DNA of 64,000 nucleotides from Escherichia coli (lineage in GTDB: Bacteria > Pseudomonadota > Gammaproteobacteria > Enterobacterales > Enterobacteriaceae): NCBI RefSeq assembly GCF_030384885.1, contig NZ_CP128614.1. The stretch is one strand, 5' to 3'. Position numbers and translations under genes: made by a program. A model generated the notes under the pieces. The model ran no database searches and had not been told where the DNA came from. It was given only the letters and a program-made list of their open reading frames with translations. Of this stretch, positions 8,134-21,491 are shown piece by piece; position 1 is the stretch's first letter; the number at the start of each line of letters is the position of its first letter.

Positions 8134-9315
8134 ATGTTAAGCAGTAAAAAAAGGAAGTCCCCTACAAATATCAAAGAATCGCTCAATGATAACGCTGACC
8201 GTTTTTATAAGATGTTTCGCATTCATACCACGGCAAAAGTTGCTATGTCGCTAATTGCCATGACCGCTGTAGGGTTTTCTTTCTACAATCTTTACGAACA
8301 ATGGCAGGACGCTGAAGGGAAGAAAGACCATATAGCTGTAATACGGATTTCTGGCGAGATGGGTACCGGCTCGGAAACGGGCGATGGAACAGTGATCGCA
8401 ACAGCTCTTGCCAAAGCTTACAATAATCCCCATGCCAAAGCAGTTATTATCGAGGCAGAGTCAGGTGGTGGTGGTCCCTCTGACGCCATCATTATTTACC
8501 GCCAGATAAACGCGCTTAAAAACCACCAGCCACAGATTGAACGCGTATCAGATGCCGGTTGCTCTCTTTCATCTGTAGCCGCTGACAAGAGTAACAAAAC
8601 CGGGAGCACAGAACGTGGCGATGAAGCACGGTCGAAGCAAAACTCCCTCGAAGTACTCTCCAGCGGTACCGGTCGTTTTTTCTCTGATATCGCAGACTCA
8701 TATAAACCAATCATCGTTAGTGTGAAAGGCATATGCGCATCCGCATGCTATTACGCGGTATCGCCCGCTGATGCAATTTATGCCGACAGTAATGCCCTGA
8801 TCGGTTCTATCGGTGTGCGTATGGACCACTGGAATCTGTCAGAGATCATGAGCACAGTAGGCGTCAAGAATGAGCCCCTTACGGCCGGTGAGTTCAAAGA
8901 TGCTCTTGACCCCTTCCACCCATTGTCCGATTCAACGAGGGAGTTCATGCAGAAGGAGATCCTGAACACGATGCATGAAAAATTTATAACTGATGTTGAA
9001 CTTGGACGGGGTAAAAAGCTTCTCTCGCGTCATGATGCCGATGCTGTTTCTCTCTATTCAGGCCGTGTATGGCCAACACCTCAGGCAGTTAAGTACGGCC
9101 TGGTGGATGGAGATCTTACGTCAGTAGAGATCCGTACACGTCTTTCAAAAATGTACTCCACTGACACGTTCAAAAACTACAATGAGCCTCATCGTAATCT
9201 CCGTTCTGCACTCGGCATGCTGATGAGCCTGTCTTCAAATATTGAGAGCCTTACCGGTACCACTACCCGCTTGGTAGAATCTGTTAATGCCACCAGCTAC
9301 CCCTCTGTGAGGTAA
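8134..9315 (+). CDS. S49-family (SppA-like) serine peptidase
   Basis: 393-aa ORF; N-terminal membrane anchor; segment GICASACYYAVSPADAIYADSNALIGSIGV resembles the signal-peptide-peptidase catalytic region. Confidence 0.55.
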   Translation: MLSSKKRKSPTNIKESLNDNADRFYKMFRIHTTAKVAMSLIAMTAVGFSFYNLYEQWQDAEGKKDHIAVIRISGEMGTGSETGDGTVIATALAKAYNNPHAKAVIIEAESGGGGPSDAIIIYRQINALKNHQPQIERVSDAGCSLSSVAADKSNKTGSTERGDEARSKQNSLEVLSSGTGRFFSDIADSYKPIIVSVKGICASACYYAVSPADAIYADSNALIGSIGVRMDHWNLSEIMSTVGVKNEPLTAGEFKDALDPFHPLSDSTREFMQKEILNTMHEKFITDVELGRGKKLLSRHDADAVSLYSGRVWPTPQAVKYGLVDGDLTSVEIRTRLSKMYSTDTFKNYNEPHRNLRSALGMLMSLSSNIESLTGTTTRLVESVNATSYPSVR

Positions 9316-9316
9316 C

Positions 9317-10048
9317 ATGGATGCTTTCAATCTGCTGTGGAGCATTACGGGGGTAGCTTTCATTATCCTTATTTTCGTCGTGTTGCTGTGTCTGTTGGGT
9401 TTTATGACCTCTGCCATAGCGGAACGGCGGACTGCAAAGGCAATTGAATCTGGGCTTCCTGAAGAAGCTCAGGGGCTACTTAGTGATCTCACCTTTCAGT
9501 TGTCGGCTCATAGCACTACTCAGGTTGATCACATTCTCGTAGCCCCACATGGTATATACGTCATAGAGCAGAAAAACTACGTAGGCAAGCTCTACGGTAC
9601 TCTGGAGGAAAGCCACTGGCGGAAATGGACTCAGTCCCGAACCCTCAAGTTGCAGAACCCGTTTAAGCAAAACCAGGGGCACATCAGGGCTATTCAGTCT
9701 GCTCTTAAGGCTAGAGAACTGGAATGTATCAATGTCGTCATCATAAACGGACGTTGTAAGTTTGATGGCATCAAGCCGGAATGGTTATGTATGGGGATGG
9801 ACGATTTTATCCATAAAGTCAAACAACGACGAGGGCTACGGTTGTTCACACCGGAGTCTGTTCAGCACATCTGTTCGGTGTTGAAGTCAACAAGGAAGTC
9901 GCCAGGGCTCTATACGGACCTTACTCATATTCACAACATAACGACAAAGTACAAAGCCCCGATGAAATTCGAGCAACGAGTAACATACATTCTGCTCAAC
10001 TTTATCCATTATCTGTGGGCAAGTCTGTTCACTAAGCAGAAGCCTTAG
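9317..10048 (+). CDS. NERD-domain protein (predicted nuclease-related)
   Basis: 243-aa ORF; N-terminal TM helix then HILVAPHGIYVIEQKNY...HWRKW, matching the NERD signature as recalled. Confidence 0.55.
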   Translation: MDAFNLLWSITGVAFIILIFVVLLCLLGFMTSAIAERRTAKAIESGLPEEAQGLLSDLTFQLSAHSTTQVDHILVAPHGIYVIEQKNYVGKLYGTLEESHWRKWTQSRTLKLQNPFKQNQGHIRAIQSALKARELECINVVIINGRCKFDGIKPEWLCMGMDDFIHKVKQRRGLRLFTPESVQHICSVLKSTRKSPGLYTDLTHIHNITTKYKAPMKFEQRVTYILLNFIHYLWASLFTKQKP

Positions 10049-10086
10049 CGCTCTATCATTGGTAAGGCTGTAAAATGTCTGCAAAA

Positions 10087-10120
10087 GGCCCCATCGGTAA
10101 ATTGTTGGGGCTTTTTCTTT
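10087..10120 (+). terminator. rho-independent terminator after the transfer operon
   Basis: GC stem GCCCCA...TGGGGC followed by TTTTTCTTT, about 40 bp after the NERD gene stop. Confidence 0.6.
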
Positions 10121-10334
10121 GCGTAGTTCTGATACGGTTTATCCTGTGGAGCATTATGGCCACCAGCCAGCTGGTGACTGGCCAACGCTTTGTATGACGT
10201 AGCCTACTCAGGGCAGGCTATTTTAGAGGGACCGATTTTTATCCGGGCTAATTTAGAAAGAGATAATTTGAACTTAGGCGGGCTGACCACCAGCAGAGAG
10301 GTAAATCACTAGCCGGTGATATTGACAGAAGTCG

Positions 10335-10697
10335 TCAGGGGTTTAACGCCGGAATATTTTGCCAGGCCTCCTGCAAGGTCTGCAAGACTTCTACAAGTGA
10401 TAGTGACGGCCACAGGACTGTTTCCGTCATTATCACTCCAGGTGGCTCGCACTCTACTGGTACCAGAATTAAAACAACACGAGTTCCTTTTACCTGGTAG
10501 GCAAGGTTTACTGCCGGTTGGCGGTAGGAGGCCAGTACACCCTCACCATATTGAGCAGGGTTACTTGCCCAGTTCCGCACCATTGCATACACCTGAGGCA
10601 TATACCGACTATCCAGATCCCCTTTGGGCCGTCTGAACGGCACGATTTCTTCTGAGCGGTAGGTGGTCGTTGTTGTATTGGTTGTCATCTTTGTCAC
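10335..10697 (-). CDS. hypothetical protein
   Basis: 120-aa ORF preceded by a strong RBS (GGGGAGGTG); Thr-rich N-terminus; likely start is the internal ATG. Confidence 0.4.
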   Translation of the reverse strand: MTKMTTNTTTTTYRSEEIVPFRRPKGDLDSRYMPQVYAMVRNWASNPAQYGEGVLASYRQPAVNLAYQVKGTRVVLILVPVECEPPGVIMTETVLWPSLSLVEVLQTLQEAWQNIPALNP

Positions 10698-10753
10698 CTC
10701 CCCTGTTCGTCCATTTAGAGTTTTAAGCTGCTTTACACATCACACTCAACTGA

Positions 10754-11038
10754 TTATTTAAGCTGGTCATCGTCTCTGGCCAGCATAGCCCAACCATTCG
10801 ACTGGTTTTCGCGGGAGTAAGGATTCATTTCAAAATAACTATCTACCGCGTCGCTGTCCGCAACAGAACTGTTGTTAGCTCTCTTTGAACCCTGAACCAC
10901 TACAGCATCAACCTCTGCGGCTTTCCCGTTGCGCTGTACCAGGATTTTAACCGTCTTGGGCTTACGTCTTGCGAGCAGTTTGTTGGCGATAAAAAGCACA
11001 ACAATCCAGGCCAAAAGCACGTATAAAAATTTATTCAT
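10754..11038 (-). CDS. small membrane-anchored protein
   Basis: 94-aa ORF with one N-terminal TM helix (FLYVLLAWIVVLFIANKLL) and a basic juxtamembrane patch; palindromic motif 164 bp upstream. Confidence 0.45.
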   Translation of the reverse strand: MNKFLYVLLAWIVVLFIANKLLARRKPKTVKILVQRNGKAAEVDAVVVQGSKRANNSSVADSDAVDSYFEMNPYSRENQSNGWAMLARDDDQLK

Positions 11039-11201
11039 AATGCCCTCCTTTGTATGTGATTATTATACCTGCTTCCATTGCAGGCCAAACAGGTTCGGTG
11101 TATGAAAAATAGACTTCTCTCCGGCGTATAGCAATCTACTTACTGATCTGTTTTCGTATCAAACTGTATGGCATAACCGAGGGGCGTACGTGGTGAGTCA
11201 G

Positions 11202-11212
11202 AAAGTTACTTT
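11202..11212. promoter_or_regulatory. palindromic motif AAAGTTACTTT, copy 1
   Basis: exact 11-bp palindrome, 164 bp upstream of the minus-strand gene starting at 11038. Confidence 0.55.
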
Positions 11213-11394
11213 TCCGTAATAGTTAATTTCAGATCCTTCTTCCAGTTACGCTTCAGTATAAAACCGATACCCTCTAATTCAGCATCCTTCACGTTTAATA
11301 CGCTTCACTTTAAGGCAGGGCTTTTCGGTTGATATGAATTCTTTTTCCGGTTGCTGGACATGGGTTTCATCCTGATAGTTAAAATTGCAGGCTA

Positions 11395-11697
11395 TCAGTC
11401 ACCACCACCACCTCCTCCTCCTCCTCCTCCACCGCCACCATCACAACCACCAGCTATGCTATTTTCACCATTACAATCACCTCCGAGGGGGTTCAAATGG
11501 CTGCTCCCCTGTAGATGGTGTCCTTGCCAGATCGAACCCGAACCAGCGCCTCCTGAGCGTCTTTGCTTGCCCTGAGGCAATTGTGCAGGCTCACCAGCAC
11601 CGGCGGTCCCAAAAATGTCCCGGGCAATTTTATAAAGAAGGTAAAAAGGTACGCCCAGCATCATAAAAAAGATTACTGAAAATATTACACGTTCCAT
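11395..11697 (-). CDS. small membrane protein with C-terminal poly-glycine tail
   Basis: 100-aa ORF; N-terminal TM helix then a Gly-rich tail ending GGCDGGGGGGGGGGGGGD, encoded by a (GGN)n / (CCT)6 triplet repeat; plus-strand ORFs over the same repeat read as poly-Pro or poly-His, so the coding strand is uncertain. Confidence 0.35.
   Translation of the reverse strand: MERVIFSVIFFMMLGVPFYLLYKIARDIFGTAGAGEPAQLPQGKQRRSGGAGSGSIWQGHHLQGSSHLNPLGGDCNGENSIAGGCDGGGGGGGGGGGGGD
11399..11440. repeat. triplet simple-sequence repeat, (CCA)3(CCT)6 on the + strand
   Basis: caccaccaccacctcctcctcctcctcctccaccgccacc read directly. Confidence 0.8.
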
Positions 11698-12129
11698 TGA
11701 TGATCTCCTGTCTTGTGAGAGACCAGTTATATCAGGGTGATTCAGTATTTCCGTTTAGAAAAGAGTACTAATTTGGCCCTGTTCGATCTTAATTTGCCAT
11801 CCGGGAAAAAGTCATAGGGATAGGCCTGCCAGAGTCAATAACTTCCAGTGATCTGGAGGAGACCCCGGCTCTCTGAGCCCTCATGGATGGTACGGCTTTA
11901 CCCCCTGTAAACAGATTCACGTTCCGCAGGACAAACATCGACTACTGACGTCTCATATTTGCTGACGCTAATCCGACGTCTCATTGCCGTCTGCTTGTTT
12001 TCTTTAAAGGGTGTATTAGACGAATATCAAATCGGAATGGTAGGGGATGTGTGGGCACCATGCCCGGCCCTCTTTGAGCATCTGAGAGATTGGAGACCTA
12101 GCCGGGTAAGATAGCTACTTTCTTACGGG

Positions 12130-12498
12130 TTACCCTTCAAATCCAAAGACGAAACGGACGCTGCCGTTCTCCACGTGGAGACGCTTTACTTCTTCGACAA
12201 ATTCCTGGATCACCTCTCCGGCGTTATCGGGTGGTATGGCTGACAAAATTTCTTCCGAAGTCAGCCATGAGTATGAATGTTCACCGAATAAATCATCATC
12301 TTCGGACGGTATATCATCAGGTAATCCGCGTAATGCGTGGATAAAAACTGCTGATGTGCTCGCCCTTTCACGATCTACATCAAATCCGAGCCAGGCAAAG
12401 TGGAGATATGATCGGTCCCCTTTATAATTGCTTGATAAATTAATCCATTTACCAGGCTTTTCTTCCCTTTGAAATCGCCAGCAGATATCAACGCCCAT
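12130..12498 (-). CDS. hypothetical protein
   Basis: 122-aa ORF, acidic, no motif recognised. Confidence 0.4.
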   Translation of the reverse strand: MGVDICWRFQREEKPGKWINLSSNYKGDRSYLHFAWLGFDVDRERASTSAVFIHALRGLPDDIPSEDDDLFGEHSYSWLTSEEILSAIPPDNAGEVIQEFVEEVKRLHVENGSVRFVFGFEG

Positions 12499-12662
12499 TA
12501 AGAAACTCCATTACTATCGTTCGTATGAGATAACTATCATTTCAGAATACTATGACTTCTTCCCGTATAGAACTAATCGCTCACGCCAACTGGGCGAAGC
12601 CAACCGGTTCCGCCACTTCGCTCATTGGTTTTTAGGCGTAAGCACTGAAGCCAGTCTCCATG

Positions 12663-13205
12663 CTAACTGGCGAGCCTGCGAAAGTCAGACTCGTTGTTAT
12701 AAAGCGGCATATCGTAAGCGGTGTCTGAAATGAACATGCGGATCTGCTCAAGCGTCATGCCACAATGAAAACGGTTTACGCTCACATTGGCCCGGGGGAA
12801 GTCAGCACAAAACGCATTCAAAACATTTTCATGGACAATGCCAATGTTGATCAACGCAGCTGGCCCGTTGTCACGGAAGGATACGACACGGAATCCCCCA
12901 TACCAGCCTGAATGGGAGAAAAATGAAAATGCGCCGGATGCCAGACCATTAGACAGGTCATAGCGCAATTTCCCGCACAGAGACTGGCTGTCTTTGCTGT
13001 ACACGCGATTAATGAAAATACCGGGACCAACTTCTACCGGCTGCTTGTTGCTTGCTAAACACGGAAAGCCCACCAGCGAAACCTCCCTTTCTCCTGACCA
13101 GTTTACCTGATACCCGGCAGTGAGAAAGTCCGTCAGTTCTACGCCAGAAAGAGCATTAATGGCCGCGATATCGGTAGTCAAAATATTTACGTTTTTCATA
13201 TTCAT
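12663..13205 (-). CDS. hypothetical protein
   Basis: 180-aa ORF; next gene downstream of 13267..13704 on the same strand. Confidence 0.45.
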   Translation of the reverse strand: MNMKNVNILTTDIAAINALSGVELTDFLTAGYQVNWSGEREVSLVGFPCLASNKQPVEVGPGIFINRVYSKDSQSLCGKLRYDLSNGLASGAFSFFSHSGWYGGFRVVSFRDNGPAALINIGIVHENVLNAFCADFPRANVSVNRFHCGMTLEQIRMFISDTAYDMPLYNNESDFRRLAS

Positions 13206-13266
13206 CTCATCTTTATTCTAAAGTGCGTTTTTTGTCTATCAGCCCGAGGATTGAAAATTTGAATAT

Positions 13267-13704
13267 TTAATGTGACAGATAAATACCTGTCACTTTTTCA
13301 AAAACAGCCTGTAATTGAATATCGAGAGAGTTCATTTTAAAATCCACCAGCTCAGCTTTATTATCGCAAACCAAATAAAAATAGGAGTCAAATGCGTCTG
13401 TATCTTCATCTTTAAAAATACGGAAGGAATTAATTTTATCATGCCCTTCAAATTCGGCATGAATACCATAGCGAACCGAGCCGTCATCGAACTGAACAAC
13501 CCGTCGTACAGAATTAATCCGGACGTACTGTTTTAAGGCCCTCGCGAAATCGGCATTTAACGCCAACGCTCGTAAGATTGAATCAGCGGTTTCATTCTGC
13601 TTTTTACGATCGTATTCAAATATCCCACAGCCGGTGTTACGAAAGACCGGCTGAAGAGCATTAACCAGGTTGAAGGAATCCACGTTTCTGTCGTTTCTGT
13701 ACAT
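13267..13704 (-). CDS. hypothetical protein
   Basis: 145-aa ORF. Confidence 0.45.
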   Translation of the reverse strand: MYRNDRNVDSFNLVNALQPVFRNTGCGIFEYDRKKQNETADSILRALALNADFARALKQYVRINSVRRVVQFDDGSVRYGIHAEFEGHDKINSFRIFKDEDTDAFDSYFYLVCDNKAELVDFKMNSLDIQLQAVFEKVTGIYLSH

Positions 13705-13748
13705 GAGATATCTCCTGCCCCTCCGCTATACGAAGGGGCTTGATAGGG

Positions 13749-14045
13749 TTACTGCCAGGCTGCGATCACTTCTTCGCACTGGAAATGAGATAAGCACTGC
13801 TGGAGTAGAAGAGCCAGCACCGCTGTGTTAGGGACGCGATTGTTACACCACGCGTTGAAAAGCAGCTGCCATGGACCGGCATAATACCCGGCCAGTTTCT
13901 TTTTTTGTTTAGCTGTACGGCAGCGGGAAATGGCCTGCTGATAAAGGCTTTCATTCTCATCACCAGCCCGTTTTTGCAGAGTGCGATAAATATACGAATA
14001 AAGACTGTCAGAACAGTTTGAAGCGTACGCCAGTTGTTTTTTCAT
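13749..14045 (-). CDS. hypothetical protein
   Basis: 98-aa ORF. Confidence 0.4.
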   Translation of the reverse strand: MKKQLAYASNCSDSLYSYIYRTLQKRAGDENESLYQQAISRCRTAKQKKKLAGYYAGPWQLLFNAWCNNRVPNTAVLALLLQQCLSHFQCEEVIAAWQ

Positions 14046-21332: not shown

Positions 21333-21491
21333 CTACTTACCGGATTCGTAGGCCAGGATAGCAAATACCTCCCTTGTTCCGTCTTTCATCCGCAACTCGC
21401 AAAGCGAGTTTCGTGTGAGCCAGGTGAATATCAACAGCGTTAAACAAACTATTAATATGCACAAAACAATGGGTTGGTTCGGCATTTTCAT
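21333..21491 (-). CDS. hok: Hok/Gef-family type I toxin
   Basis: 52-aa product [52 protein letters not shown], close to plasmid R1 Hok as recalled; the listed 71-aa ORF is an upstream extension. Confidence 0.7.

Follow-up and report, generated by a model that had tools for sequence, protein, structure and literature searches.

The sequence analysed here, referred to as the window, is a 64,000-nucleotide stretch of Escherichia coli DNA (contig NZ_CP128614.1). The region of interest corresponds, with full or almost full identity, to backbone DNA of the IncHI2 conjugative plasmids and matches 987 PLSDB records, in which the backbone matches span Escherichia, Salmonella, Enterobacter, Klebsiella and other genera. 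The coordinates of plasmid pSTM6-275 are those of the window across the locus and to at least ~21 kb, with divergence further on. Plasmids of the IncHI2 and IncHI1 groups are important vehicles of mcr-1, of ESBL and carbapenemase genes and of the multidrug-resistance genes of typhoid; the majority of their backbone genes are uncharacterised.

The gene under study is one of a long series of hypothetical genes on the minus strand. The series is convergent with a plus-strand transfer operon comprising mobI, the mobH relaxase gene, traD and the genes for a DUF4400 (TraJ-like) protein, an S49 peptidase and a NERD protein. It adjoins a gene for a small transmembrane (TM) protein of 94 aa and is two genes away from the gene of the S49 peptidase, a membrane protein; a hok gene is located elsewhere in the window. 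In RefSeq the product is entered as WP_000442694.1, 'hypothetical protein', on the minus strand of pSTM6-275 and of hundreds of other IncHI2 plasmids, so that the existence of the open reading frame was already on record. A literature search retrieved no paper citing WP_000442694, WP_000442693 or WP_001572411, and a paper on IncHI2 evolution (PMC9599605) contains nothing specific on the gene. The features of the locus, all on the minus strand, are as follows.

11395-11697, minus strand: open reading frame of 100 aa with an ATG start, stop codon included (ORF list)
11705-11709, minus strand: Shine-Dalgarno sequence AGGAG, 7 nt before the ATG at 11695-11697 (read from the sequence)
11632-11688, minus strand: codons 4-22, predicted hydrophobic N-terminal TM segment of the signal-anchor type (Kyte-Doolittle, AlphaFold2)
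11440-11631, minus strand: codons 23-86, a basic patch (K23, R26, K44, R46, R47) followed by a Gly/Ser/Gln-rich, predicted-disordered segment (composition, charge, AlphaFold2)
11401-11439, minus strand: 13 consecutive Gly codons, GGT GGC GGT (GGA)6 (GGT)4 (read from the sequence)
11413-11430, minus strand: (GGA)6 core, (TCC)6 on the plus strand, the expanding or contracting unit (allele comparison)
11398-11400, minus strand: terminal Asp codon GAC, followed by the TGA stop codon (read from the sequence)

The product reads MERVIFSVIFFMMLGVPFYLLYKIARDIFG...GGCDGGGGGGGGGGGGGD, its full sequence is MERVIFSVIFFMMLGVPFYLLYKIARDIFGTAGAGEPAQLPQGKQRRSGGAGSGSIWQGHHLQGSSHLNPLGGDCNGENSIAGGCDGGGGGGGGGGGGGD, and it contains the peptide DIFGTAGAGEPAQLPQGK. 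The initial annotation, made from the sequence alone, had described a minus-strand frame of 100 aa with an N-terminal TM helix and a 13-residue C-terminal poly-Gly tail encoded by a triplet repeat, and all three elements are present. The frame is in the ORF list, the Kyte-Doolittle maximum over 19 residues is 2.24 at residues 4-22, and the plus strand across the tail reads (CCA)3CC(TCC)6 and onward. AlphaFold2, run on the single sequence, places a helix at residues 2-32 with block pLDDT values of 87-94. Block means after residue 30 do not exceed 54, and the product beyond the N-terminal helix is predicted to be disordered. Gly makes up 29% of the residues, two Cys are found in the segment of codons 23-86 (C75 and C85), and the AGGAG sequence is unchanged across 10 alleles.

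Microcin V is synthesized as a Gly-rich precursor of 103 aa that has a C-terminal disulfide, and its immunity gene lies next to that of the precursor. The initial annotation had noticed a faint resemblance to Gly-rich bacteriocin-type peptides, which would make the product the precursor of a class II microcin or bacteriocin-like peptide, or a membrane-located immunity partner. The likeness consists of a length near 100 aa, the Gly content, the pair of Cys close to the C-terminus, separated by 10 residues, and the adjacent gene for a small membrane protein. However, a hydrophilic leader of 15-19 residues ending in GG, GA or GS is absent, as the initial annotation had itself remarked of a leader motif, and the place of the leader is taken by a hydrophobic anchor of 19-21 residues (helix at residues 4-22). 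Searches of Pfam, NCBIfam, PHROGs and PADLOC yielded no match, bacteriocin families included, and no gene for a C39-peptidase ABC exporter or a membrane fusion protein is annotated in the 50 kb of pSTM6-275 examined. According to the positive-inside rule, the tail would moreover remain in the cytoplasm. Since there is neither a double-glycine leader nor a nearby exporter, the bacteriocin idea fails, and we regard a microcin-type function as extremely improbable.

A second comparison is with the Hok-type toxins, which like the product are small plasmid-borne proteins with one hydrophobic helix. In this scenario the protein would be the membrane toxin of a module resembling type I toxin-antitoxin systems, held off by a 5' hairpin that sequesters the Shine-Dalgarno sequence or by an antisense RNA. 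A predicted hairpin of 8 bp does overlap the Shine-Dalgarno sequence, the context is that of a plasmid that also carries hok, and an Rfam scan of positions 9000-14000 returned as its single, sub-threshold match Mu-gpT-DE in the 5' untranslated region (11695-11737). That match scored 24 bits against a gathering score of 49, and the fold of the 5' untranslated region was not better than that of shuffled sequences (z = -0.83). Arguing further against a toxin is the length of the product, which with its long polar tail is twice that of the Hok-type toxins (under about 60 aa) and unlike known type I toxins, as well as the lack of a match to HOK_GEF or another toxin family. In addition, a transposon-truncated allele that keeps the TM helix is tolerated and widespread. 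A toxin is thus very unlikely.

Coding strand

Within the Gly tract the wobble positions of the GGN codons coincide with those of the CCN codons on the opposite strand, which makes the coding strand undecidable from the tract; to this extent the ambiguity pointed out in the initial annotation persists. Synonymous GGA/GGT changes in the tract were for the same reason dropped as coding-strand evidence, as they also fall on wobble positions of the antisense CCN frame. Over the whole open reading frame, by contrast, the ambiguity is resolved in favour of the minus strand. The minus frame is the only one of the six without stop codons over codons 1-86 and is open across all 300 nt. For codons 1-86, dN/dS against three diverged alleles amounts to 0.28 (L013), 0.19 (L014) and 0.46 (L009), values that fall within the range of the neighbouring genes (0.03-0.97, mostly 0.1-0.3). 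Variable sites outside the tail are distributed over codon positions 1, 2 and 3 in the ratio 6:3:12, and the substitutions in the TM segment of diverged alleles, V4I and I9L, are solely conservative. The frame shares its orientation with the long run of minus-strand genes and is annotated accordingly by PGAP. Outside the tract, the sequence evidence hence favours the minus strand.

The competing frame on the plus strand (11351-11575, 74 aa, TTG start) would encode a protein with a poly-proline run. In the in-frame alleles it is uninterrupted over 79-80 codons. Where it overlaps the sense frame, its omega is 0.29-0.45 and resembles the sense value, since the two frames share their wobble positions. 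The TTG start, however, is not preceded by a Shine-Dalgarno sequence, and the first ATG is lost in pZ96-1_1 (L006). The frame spans only the 3' 60% of the region, with three stop codons in its frame across codons 1-86, is oriented opposite to all neighbouring genes, and the antisense frame of the IncHI1 counterpart described below has no similar architecture. Translation of the plus strand therefore has next to no probability. The shared wobble positions and the similarly low omega of the poly-Pro frame over the 3' half were nonetheless counted against the reading of the minus strand as a gene.

The scan for promoters and terminators returned nothing convincing for the gene, and no sigma-70-like promoter was found in the 432-nt spacer upstream, which was likewise counted against it.

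The glycine tract and its alleles

Tandem Repeats Finder delimits an array of period 3 at 11400-11452. In 100 block-shuffled windows no frame had a homopolymer run of more than 7 residues (mean of the longest runs 5.2), compared with the 13 observed, so that the run is far beyond chance. The (GGA)6 core is contained in the longest pure purine/pyrimidine run of the window (20 nt, 11411-11430), and ViennaRNA with the G-quadruplex option places the tract in two-tetrad G4s. As GGA accounts for only 15% of the Gly codons across 21 neighbouring genes, six GGA codons in a row indicate slippage as the origin of the expansion.

In-frame repeat polymorphism of trinucleotides is a well-known phenomenon, and the initial annotation had predicted that triplet slippage would change the tract length in frame and had proposed a comparison of related strains. 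This comparison bears the prediction out: natural alleles with 14, 13, 12, 9 and 3 Gly residues were recovered, all of them in frame. The form in the window, (GGA)6(GGT)4, and a second form, (GGA)4(GGT)6, both encode G13; (GGA)5 or (GGA)4(GGT)5 yields G12, and (GGA)2(GGT)4, found in 30 contigs, yields G9. G3 is represented by 2 contigs, and a form 3 nt longer in NZ_CP016838.1 was read as G14. Two copies are out of frame, the pSCE516-1 record by a 5-nt insertion and the diverged allele L009 by a 1-nt deletion. In the R478-type lineage the tail is interrupted (G6-D-G5-D), as it is in two more diverged lineages (G6-D-G6-D), and the interrupted tails with mixed codons are likely to represent the ancestral state.

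Allele frequencies among 975 PLSDB records of complete plasmids were determined with allele-specific queries of 137-140 nt, allowing at most 1 mismatch. The G13 allele was found in 470 records and the R478-type allele in 426, together ~92%, with the remaining ~8% distributed over other forms. The tract is accordingly polymorphic but not hypervariable, and its length is for the most part stably inherited within a lineage. Hundreds of database proteins labelled 'partial' stop inside the tract because short-read contigs break in the (GGA)n run. Since such breaks are frequent, some of the variants, including singleton replacements of G by V, R, E, A or C, may be sequencing artefacts.

The tract invites comparison with the contingency loci of Neisseria, Haemophilus and Campylobacter, with which it shares a slippage-prone short tandem repeat in a coding sequence and length polymorphism among isolates. 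It could by analogy be an adaptive element in which slippage tunes the length of the tail or linker of a membrane-tethered peptide, with lengths selected by host or condition. The several in-frame alleles and the pure (GGA)6, which is more slippage-prone than the interrupted ancestral form, would be in line with such a function, and the breaks of contigs in the tract could mean length heterogeneity within a culture. However, poor Illumina coverage of GGA-rich DNA explains the breaks equally well. The tract differs from the contingency loci in that its repeat unit is one codon; length changes remain in frame and cannot switch expression on or off. One of two alleles is essentially unchanged in ~92% of the plasmids, which come from many genera, hosts and years. 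This dominance of two alleles implies that mutations are realised at a low rate and that the alleles are passed on along lineages, and no association with the host is visible. Adaptive tuning of the tail length is in our estimate improbable.

Counterparts in IncHI1 plasmids and disrupted copies

The genes that flank the open reading frame have homologues of 56-78% identity in ~270 IncHI1-type plasmids, and the slot between these homologues holds an open reading frame of the same design in R27, pHCM1 and p60214CZ_VIM. The slot is bounded on one side by a gene of 178 or 181 aa and a short variable gene, and on the other by the gene of a 94- or 104-aa TM protein, a gene of 117 or 118 aa and the NERD-S49-DUF4400-traD-mobH operon. 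The R27 frame is annotated as WP_000925846.1 (77 aa; MLLNIALILYVAVCLYLCLRNKKALYRSQGGGRQFTQSSKSGANTGESGFFLISGYSDTGVGGDSGDAGGGCGGGGD), that of pHCM1 carries no annotation, and p60214CZ_VIM contains an open frame of 91 aa with the end ...GGCGGGGDAGGGCGGGGD. Altogether, 271 plasmid records contain an IncHI1-type frame in the slot, in many of them unannotated. A Klebsiella IncHI1B/FIB plasmid with a NERD gene of 35% identity has no comparable frame in the slot, an observation counted against the gene.

The frames in the slot have in common the spacing AGGAG-N7-ATG, which is where gene callers start the IncHI1 frame, a predicted TM helix right at the N-terminus, a patch of basic residues and a Gly-rich polar tail (31-36% Gly). 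In all three lineages, Lys and Arg add up to 5-8 in the 25 residues after the TM segment and to 0-1 before it. The proteins end with Cys, a Gly run and a terminal Asp (in the IncHI1 form ...GGCGGGGD-stop), and almost every intact form recovered from IncHI2 or IncHI1 keeps an acidic residue at the C-terminus. An end in GGG and D or E is rare among open segments of 50 aa or more: a single one of 442 has it in the window, and a single one of 340 in the locus of R27, in both cases the frame in the slot. WP_000925846.1 of R27 and pHCM1 differs from the window protein in being shorter and in having the tail GGGCGGGGD, which is encoded by mixed codons instead of a pure triplet repeat. The mixed Gly codons of the IncHI1 and R478-type tails indicate that the Gly-rich tip is independent of the DNA repeat.

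Two IncHI1-type lineages differ in the slot frame to the extent of 66% amino acid identity, yet they agree in all of the last 12 residues, where one codon differs synonymously. Omega between these lineages is 0.54 for the slot frame versus 0.13-0.32 for the neighbours, and this higher value was counted against the gene. Comparison of the IncHI2 with the IncHI1 proteins by BLASTP yields E=2.2, which is not significant, and at the DNA level the similarity is confined to a weak collinear match that spans the 3' end and the stop codon (E=0.08). Common ancestry thus rests on position, architecture and the C-terminal motif, and the frames are positional counterparts of shared architecture, not proven homologues. 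A microarray study of R27 (PMC7366339) gives its values by R-number, with 92/165 units for R0112 and 2633/2687 units for R0113.

Beyond these counterparts the gene is an ORFan. A tblastn search of PLSDB revealed no relatives outside IncHI2. Only the IncHI2 copies and low-complexity matches to long repetitive proteins were returned when 5.8 billion proteins were searched through a word index and when 1.8 billion representative proteins were scanned in full with HMMER. PDB sequence searches, like those of the family collections named above, produced no match, nor did searches of family and structure libraries with the IncHI1 counterparts.

In a widespread IncHI2 sublineage, a transposon is inserted after codon 49. 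The insertion carries a gene for a DDE transposase of 402 aa, followed by Glt-symporter, ABM and ArsR-type HTH genes, a content that we take to be that of one arm of Tn10. The truncated product (P0013) occurs in no fewer than 460 contigs and is listed by 717 blocks of the protein index, and split or partial copies make up ~3% of the PLSDB records. The persistence of disrupted and split copies implies that the gene is not needed for persistence of the plasmid. Frameshifted and insertion-disrupted copies also fit weak or no selection and were in this respect counted against the gene.

These observations bear on the possibility that the open reading frame is spurious and that no protein is made from either strand. 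In that case the tract would simply be a trinucleotide microsatellite within a long stretch of intergenic DNA, in a plasmid backbone silenced by H-NS, and any significance would lie at the DNA level, for example as a polypurine/polypyrimidine element prone to form H-DNA or G4s. The lack of homologues and of a family match, the missing promoter, the disrupted and frameshifted records, the purine/pyrimidine run, the predicted G4s and the end of short-read contigs at the tract are all compatible with this scenario. Arguing against it are a canonical Shine-Dalgarno sequence with ATG, a strongly hydrophobic segment of 19 residues exactly at the N-terminus, dN/dS below 0.5 in the sole stop-free frame, the synonymous differences in the terminal GGN and GAY codons, and the retention in IncHI1 of a frame of the same architecture despite ~30% DNA divergence of the flanking genes. 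A spurious open reading frame is unlikely.

Proposed nature of the gene product

In the model that we favour with moderate confidence, the open reading frame is a real minus-strand gene of the IncHI2 backbone that encodes a bitopic inner-membrane protein of ~100 residues, belonging to a fast-evolving accessory family of IncHI plasmids, with a Gly tail grown by slippage. The frame would be translated from the AGGAG-preceded ATG, and the anchor helix, with almost no N-terminal overhang and a basic cluster behind it, would adopt an N-out/C-in topology. By the positive-inside rule, the surplus of basic residues on the C-terminal side of the helix predicts a cytoplasmic location of the Gly-rich tail. 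This flexible Gly/Ser/Gln-rich tail of ~75 residues would end in Cys-Asp-(Gly)n-Asp-COOH. The family would occupy one fixed position in IncHI1 and IncHI2 plasmids, beside the gene of the small TM protein. The pure G13 run presumably arose by lineage-specific replication slippage of (GGA)n from an older interrupted tail such as G6-D-G5/6-D, and changes in tract length would only lengthen or shorten a flexible linker, which is apparently tolerated. As IncHI1 and IncHI2 both retain the Cys-Gly(n)-Asp-COOH tip, this tip is a likelier functional part than the exact number of Gly residues. The proximity of the gene to the transfer operon hints at a possible link to conjugation or to functions of the envelope.

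A more far-reaching version of this model, to which we assign little probability, envisages a hitherto unrecognised, IncHI-specific family of N-terminally anchored membrane peptides in which the Cys-(Gly)n-Asp-COOH tip on its flexible tether is the functional module. The tip might dock onto the adjacent transfer or partition machinery or be processed by it, for example by the S49 peptidase, and (GGA)n slippage would adjust the length of the tether.

What is new, and of modest weight, is the allele spectrum of the tract, the resolution of the coding strand and the often-unannotated IncHI1 counterpart. An IncHI ORFan that is probably a genuine membrane protein with a conserved, acidic-tipped poly-Gly end offers a small, defined target for knockout and localisation studies. 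Should the protein lack a phenotype, the tract would be no more than a common type of in-frame microsatellite, located in an accessory gene that the plasmid can do without. In practice the (GGA)n tract is a recurrent break point of short-read contigs and might be explored as a simple lineage marker that distinguishes G13-type from R478-type IncHI2 backbones.

Contig ends and predicted structure at the glycine tract

The (GGA)n run, the slippage-prone core of the glycine tract, forms the contig end in hundreds of short-read assemblies, both in Logan and among NCBI drafts.

Window 11413-11430: contig ends within the (GGA)n run, as in the compared loci L016-L019

Proteins of 86-94 residues recorded as 'partial' arise because their contigs stop within the run; one of them, P0023, is listed by itself in 246 index blocks. 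The breaks could reflect coverage or polymerase trouble on GGA-rich DNA prone to form G-quadruplexes or H-DNA, or they could reflect length heterogeneity of the run within a culture. When the 3' end of the mRNA (window 11340-11487, minus strand) was folded with the G-quadruplex option of ViennaRNA, the GGA/GGT tract fell in several predicted two-tetrad G-quadruplexes, and the model energy was -78.7 kcal/mol, compared with -30.1 kcal/mol without that option; the former value is probably an overestimate by the model.

At the other end of the transcript, a predicted 8-bp hairpin overlaps the Shine-Dalgarno sequence of the Gly-tract ORF. The fold of the 5' UTR is no better than that of shuffled sequences (z = -0.83), and the Rfam match to Mu-gpT-DE over this region (window 11695-11737, minus strand; 24.4 bits, E=0.022) lies below the family's gathering score of 49.

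Interrupted and possibly rearranged copies

Two kinds of departure from the intact gene were encountered, one carrying an inserted element and the other, which may be an assembly chimera, joining the glycine tract to a plus-strand frame.

L010:4001-5463 (CP133279.1), corresponding to window about 11550: insertion that breaks the Gly-tract gene after codon 49
Window about 11430 (minus) to about 10530 (plus): junction in P0041 and P0044

The element in L010 carries a gene for a 402-residue DDE transposase, followed by Glt-symporter, ABM and ArsR-type HTH genes, and from this gene content we take it to be Tn10-like. The truncated product of the interrupted gene, P0013, occurs in at least 460 contigs. 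In P0041 and P0044, 'partial' E. coli proteins, the start of the glycine tract (…GGCDGGG) runs directly into the frame read from the plus strand at 10316-10636 (RRPVHPHHIEQGYLP…). Such a junction requires that about 0.9 kb has been inverted or that the assembly is chimeric close to the tract.

Neighbouring genes and the IncHI1 counterpart

Window 10754-11038 (minus): 94-residue gene adjoining the Gly-tract ORF; N-terminal TM helix, then a basic patch (MNKFLYVLLAWIVVLFIANKLLARRKPK...)
Window 12130-12498 (minus): 122-residue gene upstream of the Gly-tract ORF
L021:2501-2755 (pHCM1, NZ_CP029895.1): IncHI1 counterpart ORF, unannotated
L022:2478-2753 and 2659-2799 (p60214CZ_VIM): IncHI1 counterpart region

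The 94-residue gene is conserved in IncHI1, where its product has 104 residues, and it and the Gly-tract gene are two small TM-protein genes that travel together. The backbone slot of the 122-residue gene is variable: the diverged IncHI2-like contig L013 lacks the gene and IncHI1 plasmids have a DUF905 gene in its place. Annotation of the IncHI1 counterpart is missing in many records besides pHCM1, and in p60214CZ_VIM PGAP calls in its stead a 46-residue ORF, which is read in another frame across the 3' end of the counterpart and is probably a mis-annotation. In the microarray supplement for the IncHI1 plasmid R27, R0113 gave a very high signal of 2633/2687 units at 25/37 C and R0112 gave 92/165 units (PMC7366339). 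R0113 is probably one of the small genes adjoining the counterpart, the match of R-numbers to ORFs being putative.

The wider window

Window 21333-21491 (minus): Hok-family type I toxin gene

According to the annotation of the IncHI2 plasmid pSTM6-275, which is collinear with the window across the Gly-tract locus, this gene sits between the IS421 and IS150 transposase genes. Over the first 50,000 bases only 36,315 are identical position for position between the window and pSTM6-275, consistent with an indel or rearrangement past about 21 kb.
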